From positions 1 through 60,011 of the forward strand of contig CALCEX010000282.1 in NCBI GenBank assembly GCA_937900325.1: a stretch of DNA of 60,011 nucleotides, read 5' to 3'. The notes beneath the pieces were generated by a model. That model was given only the letters and a program-made list of their open reading frames with translations. It was not told the origin of the DNA and did not search any database. Origin of the DNA: an uncultured Clostridia bacterium. GTDB lineage: Bacteria; Bacillota; Clostridia; Christensenellales; CAG-138. Position numbers and translations under genes: made by a program. Below, piece after piece: positions 1 to 27,769 of this stretch. Position 1 is the first letter of the stretch; every line of letters begins with the position of its first letter.

Positions 1-116
1 AAGGGCGGGGGCCGCCCGCAGGCGGTCAGTTCCGGCGCGTCTCCCGCGGCGGAACCTCCTCTGTGGTCGATACTAAGAAAATTCCTCCCTTCGGTTGACA
101 CCGAAAGGAGGAATGG
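1..116. repeat. GC-rich structured ~117-bp module, copy a (cut by window edge)
   Basis: Near-identical to 427-543 and similar to 542-650. Contains hairpins CCGCC-cgca-GGCGG (12-25) and GTTCCG...CGGAAC (29-55), plus a 14-bp hairpin at 81-114. Confidence 0.8.
75..114 (-). terminator. Intrinsic terminator of peptide mRNA 1
   Basis: On the minus strand: ATTCCTCCTTTCGG-tgtcaa-CCGAAGGGAGGAAT followed by TTTTCTT. The single C/A mismatch on the plus strand becomes a G-U pair on the minus strand. Confidence 0.7.
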
Positions 117-123
117 GTATAAT
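95..123 (+). promoter_or_regulatory. Sigma-A type promoter of sRNA 1
   Basis: TTGACA (95-100), 17-nt spacer, TATAAT (118-123). The -35 box lies in the loop of hairpin 81-114. Confidence 0.7.
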
Positions 124-129
124 ACCAGT

Positions 130-221
130 AGGGTAAGACCGAATCGGTCAGCCGATACTTAAGTTTTATTCCTAACTAATAGGAACTACCGCTCTGGTGT
201 CAGCAGGGCGGTTATTTTTTT
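130..221 (+). ncRNA. Candidate cis-antisense sRNA 1 (putative type I antitoxin)
   Basis: Starts about 7 nt after the TATAAT. Has a 5' hairpin GACCGaatCGGTC, an internal hairpin TTCCTAactaaTAGGAA, and a terminator stem 188-196/204-212 followed by TTATTTTTTT. It overlaps the stop codon of the minus-strand peptide ORF and lies within that mRNA's 3' UTR. Confidence 0.6.
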
Positions 222-292
222 CTGACCGTTATGGTTATCGATTTTATGTCACGCTTCAGCGCAACAAAAAGCATGATAATCAATTCAATCAT
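212..292 (-). CDS. 26-aa peptide MIELIIMLFVALKRDIKSITITVRKK (putative type I toxin 1)
   Basis: Hand translation; too short for the ORF track. GGAGG lies 8 nt upstream of the ATG. Hydrophobic N-terminus, basic C-terminus. Paralog at 739-822 with synonymous and conservative differences. Confidence 0.55.
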   Translation of the reverse strand: MIELIIMLFVALKRDIKSITITVRKK

Positions 293-296
293 ACTT

Positions 297-319
297 CACA
301 CCTCCCTTCGGAGAGTGTG
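297..319 (-). promoter_or_regulatory. SD-sequestering hairpin in the peptide-1 5' UTR
   Basis: Minus strand CACACtCTCC-gaag-GGAGGTGTG. The GGAGG Shine-Dalgarno is fully paired. Confidence 0.6.
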
Positions 320-356
320 CTGACCGCCGCTTGCCCTGTGTATTATACTTGAAATC

Positions 357-385
357 ATTATAGCGCTTATGTAGAAATTTGTCTA
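357..385 (-). promoter_or_regulatory. Sigma-A type promoter of peptide mRNA 1
   Basis: Minus strand TAGACA (385-380), 17-nt spacer, TATAAT (362-357). Confidence 0.65.
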
Positions 386-426
386 TATTGAACGACGCCC
401 TTATACCCACTAAGAAAATAGGAAAT

Positions 427-543
427 GAAGGGCGGGGGCCGCCCGCAGGCGGTCAGTTCCGGCGCGTCTCCCGCGGCGGAACTTCCTCTGTGGTCGAAAT
501 TAAGAAAATTCCCCCAATCCGTTGACACGGAAAGGGGGAATGG
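427..543. repeat. GC-rich structured module, copy b (orphan, no sRNA or peptide attached)
   Basis: Same GC part as copy a. Hairpin 508-541 has the stem changed CTCC/GGAG to CCCC/GGGG, with the TTGACA loop conserved. No -10 box follows. Confidence 0.8.
502..541 (-). terminator. Orphan terminator-like hairpin (copy b)
   Basis: Minus strand ATTCCCCCtttCCG-tgtcaa-CGGattGGGGGAAT followed by TTTTCTT. Confidence 0.5.
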
Positions 544-650
544 GGCCCGCCGCAGCGGGTCAGTTCCGGCGCGTCTCCCGCGGCGGAACCTCCTCTGTGG
601 TCGATACTAAGAAAATTCCTCCCTTCGGTTGACACCGAAAGGAGGAATGG
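542..650. repeat. GC-rich structured module, copy c
   Basis: Directly abuts copy b. The first hairpin is CCCGC-cgca-GCGGG (546-559), a double compensatory variant of copy a. Confidence 0.8.
609..648 (-). terminator. Intrinsic terminator of peptide mRNA 2
   Basis: Same hairpin sequence as 81-114 (here 615-648), followed by TTTTCTT on the minus strand. Confidence 0.7.
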
Positions 651-657
651 GTATAAT
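629..657 (+). promoter_or_regulatory. Sigma-A type promoter of sRNA 2
   Basis: TTGACA (629-634), 17-nt spacer, TATAAT (652-657). Confidence 0.7.
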
Positions 658-663
658 ACCAGT

Positions 664-747
664 AGGGTAAGACCGTAACGGTCAGCCAGTCAAGAAAAAG
701 TTATTATTTGAAATAACCGTCCTGTTCCAGCAGGGCGGTTATTTATG
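664..747 (+). ncRNA. Candidate cis-antisense sRNA 2 (putative type I antitoxin)
   Basis: Conserved 5' part GTAGGGTAAGACCGtaaCGGTCAGCC. The divergent middle keeps a hairpin (GTTATTatttgaAATAAC). Terminator stem 716-724/731-739 followed by TATTTATGT. Confidence 0.55.
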
Positions 748-822
748 TCGGAACTTTATGATCGTTATCGTCTCTACTTCATGCTTAAGCGCAAGAATGA
801 GCGCAATAATCAATTCCAGCAT
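739..822 (-). CDS. 27-aa peptide MLELIIALILALKHEVETITIIKFRHK (putative type I toxin 2)
   Basis: Hand translation. GGAGG lies 8 nt upstream of the ATG. Paralog of 212-292. Confidence 0.55.
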   Translation of the reverse strand: MLELIIALILALKHEVETITIIKFRHK

Positions 823-826
823 TCTA

Positions 827-849
827 CACACCTCCCTTCGGAGAGTGTG
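827..849 (-). promoter_or_regulatory. SD-sequestering hairpin in the peptide-2 5' UTR
   Basis: Identical sequence to 297-319. Confidence 0.6.
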
Positions 850-886
850 CTGACCGCCGCTTGCCCTGTGTATTATACTTGAAATC

Positions 887-915
887 ATTATAGCGCTTAT
901 GTAGAAATTTGTCTA
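887..915 (-). promoter_or_regulatory. Sigma-A type promoter of peptide mRNA 2
   Basis: Identical to 357-385: TAGACA, 17-nt spacer, TATAAT on the minus strand. Confidence 0.65.
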
Positions 916-959
916 TATATAAGGCTTTTCCTCAATACAGACAAATTCATGCAGCTGCG

Positions 960-1703
960 CTATTCATAATCGAAGGACTGAAGAAACGTCTTTGCGCGGC
1001 CGGTTTCCGGGCCGTTGAAAAAGCGCTTCGGGTCGCCGGATTGCTCTACGATGACGCCGTTCTCTATAAACACGATCCGGTCGGCAATGGCGCGGGCAAA
1101 GTTCATCTCATGGGTGACGATGACCATGGTGCTGCCCGCCCTGGCAAGAGACAGAACTACCTCCAGCACCTCCCGCACCATTTCCGGGTCGAGCGCCGCG
1201 GTGATCTCATCGAGCAGCAGTATCTCCGGGTGCATACACATCGCCCGGACAATGGCTACCCGCTGCTTCTGCCCGCCGGACAGCTGCCGCGGATAGTCGT
1301 CCTTCCGATCGGCAAGCCCGACCCGCTCCAGCAGCTCCAGCGCCTCCTGCTCCGCCTCCGCGCGGGGGCGCTTCTGTACCTTCATCGGCGCGAGCAGGAT
1401 GTTTTCCAGAATGGTCATATGAGGAAAAAGATCATAGCTCTGGAATACCATGCCGATCTTCTGCCGCATCCGGGTGATGGACCTGCTCTCCCGCTGAACC
1501 GGCTCCCCATCCAGCAGTATCTCGCCGCCCTGAATCGGCTCCAGGCCGTTCAGGCAGCGCAGCAGCGTGCTTTTCCCGCAGCCGGATGGGCCGATGATCA
1601 CGACCACCTCGCCCTTGTGGACGTCCAGGTCAAAATCCTCAAAAATAACATGATCTCCGAAATCCTTATGCAGATGCCGGACGCTTAACAAAACATTTTC
1701 CAC
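960..1703 (-). CDS. Polar amino-acid ABC transporter ATP-binding protein
   Basis: C-terminal part of ORF 960..2315. Walker A GPSGCGKST, signature LSGGQKQR, Walker B ILLLDE, H-loop VTHEM. GTG start at 1703 preceded by AGGTGG; alternative GTG at 1715. Confidence 0.9.
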   Translation of the reverse strand: MENVLLSVRHLHKDFGDHVIFEDFDLDVHKGEVVVIIGPSGCGKSTLLRCLNGLEPIQGGEILLDGEPVQRESRSITRMRQKIGMVFQSYDLFPHMTILENILLAPMKVQKRPRAEAEQEALELLERVGLADRKDDYPRQLSGGQKQRVAIVRAMCMHPEILLLDEITAALDPEMVREVLEVVLSLARAGSTMVIVTHEMNFARAIADRIVFIENGVIVEQSGDPKRFFNGPETGRAKTFLQSFDYE

Positions 1704-1705
1704 AG

Positions 1706-2380
1706 CTATGACCACCTTTTTTCCAAATACCCCGCCAAACGGCCGACCGGCCAGCAAATAAGAAAATACAGCAAAAATACCGCCCCAAAGACGCCGAACG
1801 CGGCGTTGGGGGATGCGCGCCGGTTCGCCTCGATGATCTGCTGGGCAACCTTCAGCACCTCCACAATGCCTATCATCATCACAAGGCTGGTGGTTTTTAC
1901 CATCCGGGTGATGAGGTTGATGGACAGCGGGATCAGCCGCCGTATTGTCTGGGGCAGAATGACCAGGCTGTAAACCTGAGCCGGCTCCATGCCAAGCGCC
2001 TGCGCGCTCTGCCATTGAATGGCGGGTATGCTCTGCAATGCGCCCCGCACCAGGTCGCCCATTTCCGCCGTGCCCCAGAAGCTGAACACGATGACGGCAG
2101 AGGTCTCCGCCTCCAGGTTCCAGCCGAATACTCTGGTCGTACCGAAATAAACTATAAACAAAAGCACCATCTGGGGCATTATCCGGACGGTTTCCAGATA
2201 TATACGGAAAACCGCCTTCAAAACGCGGCTTCTTGAGGTCATGAGAACCCCCATCCCAACGCCCAGCACGATGCTGACGGCGACGGAGATCAGGCTGATG
2301 CGCAGCGCCACCCACAGGCCGCCCAGCAGCCGCAGAAAATTCGTCCCCTTGAACAGAACGTCAATCCCCAAACTCTGCAT
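1706..2380 (-). CDS. Amino-acid ABC transporter permease (His/Glu/Gln/Arg/opine family)
   Basis: ORF 1706..2380. Multi-TM protein with an EAA-type loop, SAQALGMEPAQVYSLVILPQ. Confidence 0.9.
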   Translation of the reverse strand: MQSLGIDVLFKGTNFLRLLGGLWVALRISLISVAVSIVLGVGMGVLMTSRSRVLKAVFRIYLETVRIMPQMVLLFIVYFGTTRVFGWNLEAETSAVIVFSFWGTAEMGDLVRGALQSIPAIQWQSAQALGMEPAQVYSLVILPQTIRRLIPLSINLITRMVKTTSLVMMIGIVEVLKVAQQIIEANRRASPNAAFGVFGAVFLLYFLICWPVGRLAGYLEKRWS

Positions 2381-3020
2381 AGCGCAGCCTCCTTTCCAGC
2401 CAGCTGCCCAGAACGGATACGGGGAGCAGCATGATCAGATAGAAGATCACCAGCAGCGTCAGGCACTCGATGGTCTTGGCGTACATCCCGATCAGATCCT
2501 TTGCCGTGAACATCAGGTCCATCAGGCTGACCGTGGAAAACACGCTGGTCTCCTTGAGCAAAAAAATCACATTTGCCAAAAGCCCGGGAACGCTGGACGC
2601 GACCGCCTGCGGCAGGATCACATAGCCAAACACCTGCGCCGGGCGCATTCCAAGGCTCTGGGCGCTCTCCGTCTGAATAAGAGGGATGCTTTCCAGCCCG
2701 CTGCGGAAGGTCTCCGCCATGTATGCGCCGCCCAGCAGGCCCAGCCCAAGCTTGCCGCAGGTCTCCGCGCTGATGCGGACGCCGATCTTCGGCAGCGCGA
2801 AATACAGGAAGAACAGCTGCACCAGCAAGGGCGTATTGCGAAACAGCCCGATGTACCCGCCGGCGATCTGCCGCAGCACGGGAATTTTCCAATGCACTGC
2901 CGCCGCGCAGGCGACGCCCAGCGCCAGCGCCAGCGCAACTCCCTGCCAGCCTATCCGAAGCGTCAGCAGCAGCGCGTCCCAAAACCTCGGCAGGTATGCG
3001 GTTATAACATCAATATCCAT
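2361..3020 (-). CDS. Amino-acid ABC transporter permease (second subunit)
   Basis: ORF 2361..3020. Paralogous to the previous permease; motif SAQSLGMRPAQVFGYVILPQ. Confidence 0.9.
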   Translation of the reverse strand: MDIDVITAYLPRFWDALLLTLRIGWQGVALALALGVACAAAVHWKIPVLRQIAGGYIGLFRNTPLLVQLFFLYFALPKIGVRISAETCGKLGLGLLGGAYMAETFRSGLESIPLIQTESAQSLGMRPAQVFGYVILPQAVASSVPGLLANVIFLLKETSVFSTVSLMDLMFTAKDLIGMYAKTIECLTLLVIFYLIMLLPVSVLGSWLERRLRYAEFGD

Positions 3021-3107
3021 AAGCGCCCTCTGTTTTACTTTGGTTTCTTAAGGCCGGTCATCCGCGCCGGAAGGGGGATAACGGCGCGGATTACCTGTCT
3101 GCTTCTG

Positions 3108-4016
3108 TTACTGCTTTGCCGAGGTATCCGCAGCGCCTTCCGCGCCGCCGCCCTCCACGACCAGCGTGTCCTCGTATTCCTTGCCGTAGGTGTCCAGCAG
3201 CGTCGCCTCATAGTCTGCGTGGAAGAAGTTCTCTTCGCCCAGCGCCCTGATCTCCTCGTTCAGCCAGTCCAGCAGCGTGGCGTTGCCCTTGGCGACAGCG
3301 GGGGCGATGGTATCCGCGCTGCCCAGAGAGGGGATGCCGACCACATAGCCGGGATTTTCGATGGCGAAAGCGATAACTTCGGTATTGTCGTTTGCCCAGG
3401 CCACGCCGTTGCCGTTTTCAAAAGCGGTCTTGGCCTCGGCGTAGGCGTCGTACTTTTGCAGCTTGATCTCGGGATTGTTCTTTTCCAGATAGGTCTCGGC
3501 AGTGGTGCCGGAGATCACGATGACCTGATCGTCAGCACCGATCTCGTCCAGGGATGTGATCGGCGCGGATTCGGGAGAAACAACGCCCAGCGCTACGTTC
3601 ATATACGGAAGGGCAAAATCCACCTCCTGCGCCCGCTCGGGAGTGACGGTAAAGTTGGCAAGTATGATGTCTACCTTTCCGGTCTGCAAATACTCTATAC
3701 GGTTGGCAGCCTCGGTAGAGACATAATTGATTTTCACGCCCAGATCTTCGCCGATGCGGTTGGCAAAGTACACGTCGTAGCCCTGATACTCGCCGTTCTC
3801 GTCCACATAGCCGAAGGGGCTCTTGTCGGAAAATACGCCAATGTTGACGGTGCCGCTGGACTTGATCTCCTCCAGTGTGCGGAAAGCGCCCGCGGCATCG
3901 GCCGCGTCGGCTCCCTCGGCGGTTTTTGCCGTCTCCGCTCCGCAGCCTGCAAGCAGGGCGGCGGCAATAGTCAGGCTCAGGAACACAATTCCGAATTTCT
4001 TGATAAATTTCTTCAT
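3108..4016 (-). CDS. Amino-acid ABC transporter substrate-binding lipoprotein
   Basis: ORF 3108..4016. Signal peptide with lipobox LLAGC; family-3 solute-binding protein features. Confidence 0.88.
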   Translation of the reverse strand: MKKFIKKFGIVFLSLTIAAALLAGCGAETAKTAEGADAADAAGAFRTLEEIKSSGTVNIGVFSDKSPFGYVDENGEYQGYDVYFANRIGEDLGVKINYVSTEAANRIEYLQTGKVDIILANFTVTPERAQEVDFALPYMNVALGVVSPESAPITSLDEIGADDQVIVISGTTAETYLEKNNPEIKLQKYDAYAEAKTAFENGNGVAWANDNTEVIAFAIENPGYVVGIPSLGSADTIAPAVAKGNATLLDWLNEEIRALGEENFFHADYEATLLDTYGKEYEDTLVVEGGGAEGAADTSAKQ

Positions 4017-27693: not shown

Positions 27694-27769
27694 GCTGATA
27701 TAGCTCAGCTGGTAGAGCGCGTCATTGGTAATGACGAGGTCCCCGGTCCGAATCCGGGTATCAGCTCCA
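27694..27769 (+). tRNA. tRNA-Thr (anticodon GGT), CCA encoded
   Basis: Acceptor stem GCTGATA/TATCAGC. D-arm AGCTCAGCTGGTAGAGC. Anticodon stem-loop CGTCA-TTGGTAA-TGACG. T-arm CCGGTCCGAATCCGG. Confidence 0.92.

Follow-up and report, generated by a model that had tools for sequence, protein, structure and literature searches.

The 60,011-nucleotide (nt) window analysed here, positions 1 to 60,011 of contig CALCEX010000282.1 from an uncultured Clostridia bacterium (assembly GCA_937900325.1), opens with two copies of one compact unit that resembles a type I toxin-antitoxin locus: module 1 (75-388) and module 2 (609-918). Both strands of positions 1-1500 were read and scanned. The minus strand of each module carries, in this order, a promoter, a leader of ~58 nt, an open reading frame (ORF) of 26 or 27 codons, a 3′ untranslated region (UTR) of ~137 nt and an intrinsic terminator. 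Nested in the same DNA, and convergent to the first transcript, is a predicted plus-strand small RNA (sRNA) of ~90 nt with its own promoter and terminator (Table 1). A mechanical scan found six promoter-like sites, against 1.3 +/- 1.1 in shuffled sequence, and seven terminator-like sites, against 1.2 +/- 1.3. The G+C content of the modules is ~42%, that of the genome ~58-60%, and the remaining 59 kb of the window contains no additional module copies. The elements listed in a preliminary description of this DNA were all found again, at the same positions, by sequence reading and by the promoter and terminator scans, and the identity of promoter and 5′ UTR between the two copies, which it had also reported, was borne out. 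The modules thus have a 3′-overlapping, type I-like anatomy, an assignment that we make with high confidence.

Conserved signals and the peptide ORF

Same-species contigs in ENA were recovered by exact look-up of the neighbouring permease and ATPase genes. Most of them stop inside the array, which marks it as an assembly-breaking repeat. A contig of 146 kb, L029 (related loci are given by such handles below), spans the array and contains three modules, a leader region and then a gene for a secreted protein of 323 amino acids (aa). A protein search with three peptides concatenated returned called ORFs in which the peptide is fused to translated UTR or to read-through sequence; such ORFs number 20 among 1.84 billion representatives in an exhaustive profile search, and the family therefore looks narrow, with the ascertainment bias that this kind of search recovers only abnormally long called ORFs. 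The contigs with called ORFs from the concatenated-peptide search, L034-L038, contain 12 further modules, in both orientations, beside LytR-CpsA-Psr genes and the same surface-protein gene. Alignment A3 comprises 18 distinct modules from the window and the related metagenome contigs, and counts out of 18 refer to it.

The promoter and leader, the first 26 nt of the sRNA and both terminators are conserved across modules; the ORF and the central part of the sRNA vary in the manner of cassettes. The peptide mRNA of module 1 has a predicted start near 350, and a minus-strand transcript of ~276 nt is predicted. Its promoter has the form T[AC]GACA-17-TATAAT in 15 of the 18 modules, is absent from two and has a 10-nt spacer deletion in one. 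The sRNA promoter matches the sigma-A-type consensus perfectly (12/12) in every module.

The Shine-Dalgarno (SD) sequence of the leader is enclosed in a hairpin, CACACTCTCCGAAGGGAGGTGTG (CACAC-T-CTCC/GAAG/GGAG-GTGTG), a 23-mer that occurs exactly twice in the 60 kb, with 0 occurrences expected by chance. Its predicted stability is -12.9 kcal/mol in the window, and the hairpin is kept in 18/18 modules at a predicted -10 to -13 kcal/mol. The changes that it has accumulated (C to U, A to G, a shifted bulge; G.U pairs) preserve pairing on the mRNA strand only. GGAGG stands 8 nt before the ATG in 17 of the 18 alleles, and GGGGG replaces it in one.

Both terminators can be assigned to a strand. The hairpin with the TTGACA loop, which forms the mRNA terminator, is favoured on the mRNA strand by 5.8 kcal/mol in all 18 modules and has its U tail on that strand; compensatory changes on both sides were found at 8 of its 15 pairs in the module alignment. 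The hairpin after the stop codon shows the opposite preference: the sRNA sense is favoured by 5.2 kcal/mol on average, again in 18/18 modules, the U-rich tail lies on the sRNA strand, and one G.U pair of the sRNA sense is a C.A mismatch on the mRNA strand in every module. From this asymmetry of ~5-6 kcal/mol, each terminator is predicted to function only on its proposed strand. For the structure as a whole, none of 500 shuffles attains the observed covariation score, and 90.8% of the real structure is paired versus ~40-48% in slid controls.

The module 1 sRNA is perfectly complementary to the 3′ UTR of the mRNA; its complementarity takes in the stop codon as well as the two or three codons before it, and the terminator hairpin of the sRNA overlaps the stop codon of the peptide ORF. 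The predicted sRNA folds reach -29.3 kcal/mol (z = -2.8) in module 1 and -31.3 kcal/mol (z = -6.6) in module 2. An own terminator had been proposed for each sRNA; this stands for module 1, where the hairpin is followed by TATTTTTTT with its U7 tail, and needs amending for module 2, where the U tail is weak (TTATTTATGT). A compensatory middle hairpin, GTTATT/AATAAC, had also been described in module 2, but these segments overlap the terminator stem and the hairpin is absent from the minimum-free-energy fold. The further proposal of two orthogonal pairs is not supported as it was put: the non-cognate sRNA and mRNA of the window share perfect complementarity over 17, 12 and 9 nt, and the cross duplex is predicted at -87 kcal/mol versus -167 and -178 kcal/mol for the cognate pairs. 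Judged by these modelled energies, orthogonality of the two pairs is possible. Weak recurrent Rfam matches to RefA9, an Enterococcus antisense sRNA, fall on the ORF end and the post-stop hairpin (window 713-779, minus; L037 191-262; L034 686-753), with 23-28.5 bits versus a gathering score of 49 and E ~1; they are probably driven by the common terminator-like hairpin.

At least six peptide classes occur among the 18 aligned modules. By the Nei-Gojobori method, the ratio of non-synonymous to synonymous differences (pN/pS) is lowest, at 0.07, between L013 and L036b (15 synonymous and 4 non-synonymous differences, p = 7e-8), and lies at 0.25-0.45 for most cross-class pairs. Mean pairwise diversity at codon positions 1, 2 and 3 is 0.33, 0.12 and 0.45. 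All gaps in the ORF are multiples of three, whereas the UTRs have gaps of 1, 7 and 8 nt. On this comparison of alleles, the short ORF is truly coding and under purifying selection. The coding selection that had been read from the two window copies is accordingly real once further alleles are included, although those two copies by themselves do not suffice to establish it (pN/pS 0.67, p = 0.19).

The peptides are 24-27 aa long, with a net charge of +1 to +5. A charged third residue is followed by 9-10 uncharged residues, then by [DE]-x-[KE]-[ST]-[IV]-T-I-T-x-[RK]-K-K, so that the C-terminus is charged (R/K-K-K). As had been anticipated, standard annotation misses them: the public calls on the contigs are either lacking or spurious. 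In the window, the spurious calls are a 45-aa ORF antisense to the peptide gene at 745-882 (plus), with a counterpart at L009 6793-6930, and ORFs running through the 5′ UTR into the peptide at 739-888 (minus), while the true ORFs of 26-27 aa are uncalled. Look-up of a 51-aa antisense ORF returned no record, and in the literature library searched, no paper contained the peptide strings.

Table 1. Features of the module array in the window, with the peptide classes of the alignment
Feature	Position	Strand	Description
Module 1 mRNA promoter	357-385	minus	-35 TAGACA 385-380, 17-nt spacer, -10 TATAAT 362-357; 11/12 match
Module 1 5′ UTR (~58 nt)	293-350	minus	5′ arm of long-range helix 348-320; SD hairpin 319-297, GGAGG 305-301
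Module 1 ORF	212-292	minus	26 aa + stop, MIELIIMLFVALKRDIKSITITVRKK (class A)
Module 1 5′-3′ helix, 3′ arm	117-153	minus	complement of sRNA -10 box and 5′ hairpin
Module 1 mRNA terminator	74-114	minus	15-bp stem 114-81, then TTTCTT; loop TGTCAA is the sRNA -35 on the other strand
Module 1 sRNA promoter	95-123	plus	TTGACA-17-TATAAT, 12/12
Module 1 sRNA (~92 nt, predicted)	130-221	plus	5′ hairpin GACCGAATCGGTC, middle hairpin TTCCTA/TAGGAA, terminator hairpin 188-212 + U7
Module 2 mRNA promoter	887-915	minus	TAGACA-17-TATAAT; 11/12 match
Module 2 5′ UTR	823-880	minus	SD hairpin 849-827; 5′ arm of long-range helix 878-850
Module 2 ORF	739-822	minus	27 aa + stop, MLELIIALILALKHEVETITIIKFRHK (class B)
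Module 2 mRNA terminator	608-648	minus	15-pair stem 648-615, then TTTCTT
Module 2 sRNA promoter	629-657	plus	TTGACA-17-TATAAT, 12/12
Module 2 sRNA (~87 nt, predicted)	664-750	plus	5′ hairpin, unstructured variable middle, 15-bp terminator hairpin 711-744
Element R copy 1	~1-75 (8-75)	minus sense	cut by window edge; 11-bp hairpin and second terminator-like hairpin
Element R copy 2	~427-500 (435-500)	minus sense	ends GGGCGGCCCCCGCCC + T-rich tail, terminator-like on minus strand in scan
Orphan terminator hairpin	497-540	minus	ATTCCCCCTTTCCGTGTCAACGGATTGGGGGAAT + TTTCTT, without -10 box, sRNA or ORF; between two R copies
Element R copy 3	~541-605 (542-605)	minus sense	
Peptide class C			MMKLLAFIIAWLSDIKSVTITIRKK
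Peptide class D			MMKLLVILFALLREVKSVTITIRKK
Peptide class E			MLRLLVLLIELLRDVKTITITLKK
Peptide class F			MLRLLVLLFALLGEIKSVTITIRKK

Predicted mRNA fold and comparison with known systems

Folding of the full-length mRNAs gives -109.2 kcal/mol for module 1 (z = -9.0) and -106.6 kcal/mol for module 2 (z = -7.8). The minimum-free-energy fold pairs leader nt 3-31 with 3′ UTR nt 199-234, and the interrupted helix so formed stops 2 nt ahead of the terminator. This long 5′-3′ helix had been overlooked in the preliminary description. The isolated leader/3′ UTR duplex of module 1 has -27.4 kcal/mol (z = -3.9), a value as low as which was reached in 0/300 shuffles; in 16/16 promoter-bearing alleles the duplex has -25 to -32 kcal/mol, with z = -3.2 to -5.5. 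Opposite the 3′ arm of the helix, on the other DNA strand, stand the -10 box and the 5′ hairpin of the sRNA, so the mRNA leader in effect mimics the 5′ end of the sRNA. A closing helix of the bsrG kind is therefore what folding predicts, and Rfam BsrG (RF01412) is the sole family with recurrent sense-strand matches, in the same register in 11 modules (12.9-24.7 bits, with a gathering score of 55; best E-value 0.001, in a 331-nt search).

Probing of bsrG mRNA has shown helix P1 between nt 1-35 and nt 232-262, the SD sequence in the SL1 stem and a terminator that begins one nucleotide after P1; binding of SR4 makes nt 1-33 single-stranded, and of the two promoters that of the antitoxin is the stronger (PMC3834814). 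The modules would share this plan. In the model, the 5′ end and the 3′ UTR of the mRNA form a long interrupted helix, the SD sequence lies in the next stem-loop and the terminator comes right after the helix. The mRNAs are of similar size (~276 nt here, ~294 nt for bsrG). As with SR4, the antisense RNA converges with the mRNA and is the complement of its 3′ part, the last stretch of the ORF included; its promoter is again predicted to be the stronger one, and the peptide tail is likewise lysine-rich. The closing helix, the SD stem-loop, the position of the terminator and the antisense over 3′ UTR and stop codon thus strengthen the 3′-overlapping type I architecture proposed in the preliminary description and narrow it to bsrG/SR4.

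Several features set the modules apart. The sRNA is ~90 nt long, SR4 ~180 nt, and the -35 box of the sRNA sits within the loop of the mRNA terminator, unlike in bsrG/SR4. BsrG has 38 aa with a long hydrophobic core, whereas the peptides here have 24-27 aa and 9-10 uncharged residues. Homology to the TxpA/BsrG or BsrE/BsrH toxins was not detected (Pfam, NCBIfam, PHROGs, E <= 10). The location also differs: bsrG belongs to the SPbeta prophage, the modules to chromosomal arrays with no recognisable prophage. The txpA/RatA pair of the B. subtilis skin element likewise has convergent transcripts that overlap at their 3′ ends. It works by RNase III-dependent decay of the duplex, which would be expected of the modules as well. 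TxpA is 59 aa long, and Rfam searches of the window and the modules gave no match to RatA.

The type I modules of C. difficile (CD2517.1/RCd8, CD2907.1/RCd9, CD0956.2/RCd10 and prophage homologues; PMC6563280) resemble those described here in belonging to Clostridia, in having convergent overlapping genes and multiple copies per genome, in being unseen by standard annotation and in encoding peptides with a hydrophobic N-terminus and a lysine-rich, charged C-terminus. They differ in the length of the toxins (30-59 aa), in their predicted transmembrane domain and in their location in prophages or beside CRISPR arrays (PMC6563280). When the comparison was extended to phages and plasmids by tblastn, peptide A had no match at E <= 10 in 50,697 phage and 72,556 plasmid records.

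A fold-back of the toxin mRNA is also known from hok/Sok and aapA/IsoA, in which a long-distance 5′-3′ interaction keeps the primary transcript inert and an anti-SD element masks the SD sequence (PMC8594479). The fold modelled here has both features. In hok/Sok and aapA/IsoA, however, the overlap with the antisense RNA lies in the 5′ region or the ORF, and trimming of the 3′ end brings about activation, whereas the antisense RNA of the modules covers the 3′ arm of the fold-back itself. In Fst/RNAII (par) and SprA1, the RNAs interact outside the overlap region (PMC8594479); here the interaction region is the overlap, and there is no Pfam match. Type I loci in general have an mRNA of 150-400 nt, a peptide of 20-60 aa, an anti-SD element, a 5′-3′ interaction and, in Gram-positive bacteria, a 3′ overlap (PMC8594479). 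The predicted ~276-nt mRNA with its 24-27-codon ORF and its predicted SD-masking cis elements falls within this description. In the generic definition (T1TAdb, Fozo 2010), the toxin is moreover hydrophobic, may span the membrane and ends in a charged C-terminus; the peptides here have the charged C-terminus, and their hydrophobic stretch is borderline.

Variation, decay and setting of the arrays

The sRNA bodies differ within a genome, apart from identical duplicates in L029. A given sRNA-body type can accompany more than one peptide class, and a given peptide class more than one sRNA body, which points to recombination at the conserved post-stop hairpin as the process that shuffles them.

Most module terminators are followed by a GC-rich unit of ~70 nt, element R, that is also present in L029, L034, L035, L036 and L038. 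Its central 11-bp hairpin covaries among loci (GTTCCGCCCCG/CGGGGCGGAAC, GTTCCTCCCCG/CGGGGAGGAAC, GTTCCGGCGCG/CGCGCCGGAAC). The unit closes with a second terminator-like hairpin. R is missing at some junctions (L036 1850-1880) and may be an insulator between modules. An interpretation of R as an integron cassette or attC site was rejected: there are zero core sites, some junctions lack R, and tandem homologous recombination suffices to account for the arrays. The locus had first been described as two modules. It holds more than that, namely three copies of R and, between two of them, an orphan terminator identical to the allele-C module terminator of L007 and L013; as read from its sequence, this hairpin is the scar of a deleted third module. 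The array probably also runs past position 1, since the window opens inside it.

Decay affects the peptide gene in particular. The stop codon is gone from at least four alleles, through +1/-1 slippage in the terminal A-run or through a change of TAA to TAC (L036 2015-2035, L035 5075-5085; proteins P0121, P0125, P0141, P0142), and for the +1/-1 cases a homopolymer assembly error is possible. The resulting products have 38-43 aa, and their tails are not conserved. The terminal A-run of the ORF doubles as the U-tract of the sRNA terminator. Decay of the peptide gene beside an intact sRNA promoter fits what would be a toxin and its antidote. At L034 267-330 and L035 7613-7560 (minus), R is fused straight to the SD hairpin (junction GGCGG(G)CCC/TCAGCACACC), and the mRNA promoter is gone together with the initial ~30 nt of the leader; the sRNA promoter remains perfect.

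An exact scan with 19- to 21-mers of the SD hairpin gave zero matches in viral contigs and four genome and three metagenome matches, all attributable to chance and in unrelated contexts; blastn of window positions 1-960 gave zero matches in phage and plasmid collections.

The array in the window directly adjoins a minus-strand operon for an ATP-binding cassette (ABC) transporter of the amino-acid importer type (960-4016), with an SBP_bac_3 binding protein, two BPD_transp_1 permeases and one ATPase. Homologues of this ATPase with 88-91% identity lie in other gene contexts without modules; they may mark paralogous loci and are therefore uninformative on the presence or absence of modules at the orthologous site. 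Among the matches of the neighbouring genes, the named relatives of the ATPase are 'Faecousia sp.' and 'Eubacteriales bacterium'. Spo0A and SipL genes lie near the array and indicate that the host is a spore-forming member of Clostridia. An imperfect inverted repeat of 29 nt (76%), at 890-918 and 935-963, links the 3′ end of the ATPase gene with the module 2 promoter region (arms AATTTGTCT ... AGACAAATT, -35 box included); it may mark the close of the ABC operon or serve as an operator. The sole Rfam match of the window above the gathering score is a tRNA gene at 27694-27766 (plus, 68.7 bits).

In the related contigs, the array always lies upstream of a variable signal-peptide gene of 319, 323 or 533 aa (L036 2631-3590, L029 4825-5744, L035 5349-6950), for which Pfam has no match. 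A partial product in L029 also has an IPKTG sortase-like motif. The ~300-nt, hairpin-rich leader of the gene gives a weak Rfam match to 'IMPDH RNA' (27.5 bits versus a gathering score of 95; L029 4549-4666). Inverted repeats of 100-120 nt, 88-93% identical, flank the 319-aa secreted-protein gene (L036 2310-2429 and 3718-3837), and the same repeat sequence flanks a single module in L038 (3-103 and 556-656). Modules on either side of the inverted-repeat locus are oppositely oriented, which suggests DNA inversions.

Proposed mechanism, alternatives and implications

We propose, with a probability of roughly 0.62, that the modules are type I toxin-antitoxin-like pairs which follow the bsrG/SR4 plan and that they form a new family in recombining arrays. 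That they work as toxin and antitoxin is, by analogy, probable. We would class the locus as a new family within a known kind of system, from uncultured gut Clostridia, with bsrG/SR4 as the closest system in mechanism. If bsrG/SR4 and txpA/RatA are taken as models, the full-length mRNA in its folded form would be stable and poorly translated. The abundant sRNA would pair with its 3′ UTR, open the closing helix and make a long duplex, which RNase III would cut, so that the mRNA is degraded with its SD sequence still sequestered. One idea is that the first sRNA contact would have to be made through the variable loops, because the closing helix would lock the conserved target segment. If the level of the sRNA dropped, the basic, partly hydrophobic peptide would be made and would harm the cell, most likely at the membrane. 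The arrays vary between strains, and recombination at the conserved flanks reshuffles ORF types and sRNA-body types.

A number of observations weigh against this proposal. The SD hairpin is equally strong with and without the sRNA, so that the switching-on of translation is left unexplained. All pairs of the 5′-3′ helix are either invariant or show one-sided (G.U) changes, with zero double compensation, and the conservation of the helix is confounded, because its 3′ arm is also constrained as the promoter and 5′ end of the sRNA. The BsrG matches all score far under the gathering score, which makes the module bsrG-like in its working but not a member of the BsrG family. The asymmetry of decay between peptide gene and sRNA promoter is inflated, since finding relatives by way of unusually long ORF calls over-samples decayed alleles. 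As for the peptide, Pfam, NCBIfam and PHROGs scans of three peptides gave zero family matches at E <= 10, and the short hydrophobic stretch, a caveat already raised in the preliminary description, is confirmed: only 9-10 uncharged residues stand in a row between charged ones, and Kyte-Doolittle maxima over 19 residues are 1.4-2.1, borderline for a membrane span.

The last of these points leads to the alternative that we take most seriously, although we regard it as unlikely: a non-toxic small peptide, membrane-associated or regulatory, with a physiological role, for example in the cell envelope, and with an mRNA tuned by a cis-antisense RNA. With its short hydrophobic stretch and the strongly conserved C-terminal [ST]-[IV]-T-I-T-x-[RK]-K-K, the peptide looks more like a surface for specific interaction than like a generic helix in the membrane. 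In every case the arrays occupy the same envelope-related site, with LytR-CpsA-Psr genes and a gene for a sortase-anchored surface protein, and purifying selection is what any functional peptide would show. Against this, several divergent copies per genome and a strain-variable copy number are the behaviour of addiction or defence modules and not of a housekeeping peptide. The peptide gene has repeatedly been inactivated while the antisense promoter is still perfect, and the double lock on translation, by SD hairpin and closing helix, is typical of products that are normally not to be made.

That the unit is a structured non-coding RNA, or an intergenic repeat of the REP or MITE type in which ORF, promoters and terminators are incidental, is highly improbable. 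The region is indeed repeated and hairpin-rich and breaks metagenome assemblies, and element R and the nearby 100-120-nt inverted repeats show that the locus is recombinogenic. The codon-level evidence already contradicts this explanation, with pN/pS as low as 0.07, variation dominated by third positions and in-frame indels; GGAGG keeps its distance to the ATG in 17/18 alleles, the promoters keep exactly the same geometry amid variable neighbouring sequence, and the other 59 kb of the window has no more copies. An exported signal or bacteriocin-like peptide handled by the adjoining ABC transporter was considered and rejected as less probable still, since that transporter is of the importer type, the arrays of related genomes adjoin LytR genes instead, and the peptide lacks a leader, a double-glycine motif and cysteines and has no modification or immunity genes nearby.

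Compared with type I toxins, the class to which the toxin-antitoxin reading would assign it, the peptide is only weakly hydrophobic and of unusually small size. A bolder version of that reading, which we consider improbable but worth stating, is that it is a new kind of very short effector and not a classical pore-forming helix, combining 9-10 hydrophobic residues with the near-invariant, strand-like C-terminal motif, in a cassette array that recombines peptide types and sRNA recognition regions independently at conserved flanks. If this is true, the population as a whole would possess in its arrays a repertoire of addiction or defence modules with partial orthogonality, physically tied to a surface-protein gene flanked by inverted repeats, and these modules might stabilise that gene or drive its rearrangement.

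To our knowledge, type I systems in Clostridia are known mainly from C. difficile. If the proposal that the modules are type I pairs is correct, this locus would add a type I family from uncultured gut Clostridia. Natural variation can here stand in for experiments, as it speaks for the coding of the 24-27-aa ORF, for the assignment of the terminators to their strands and for the predicted bsrG-like closing helix. The arrays may also offer a natural set of shuffled combinations of toxin, 3′ UTR and sRNA in which to study how antisense specificity evolves.

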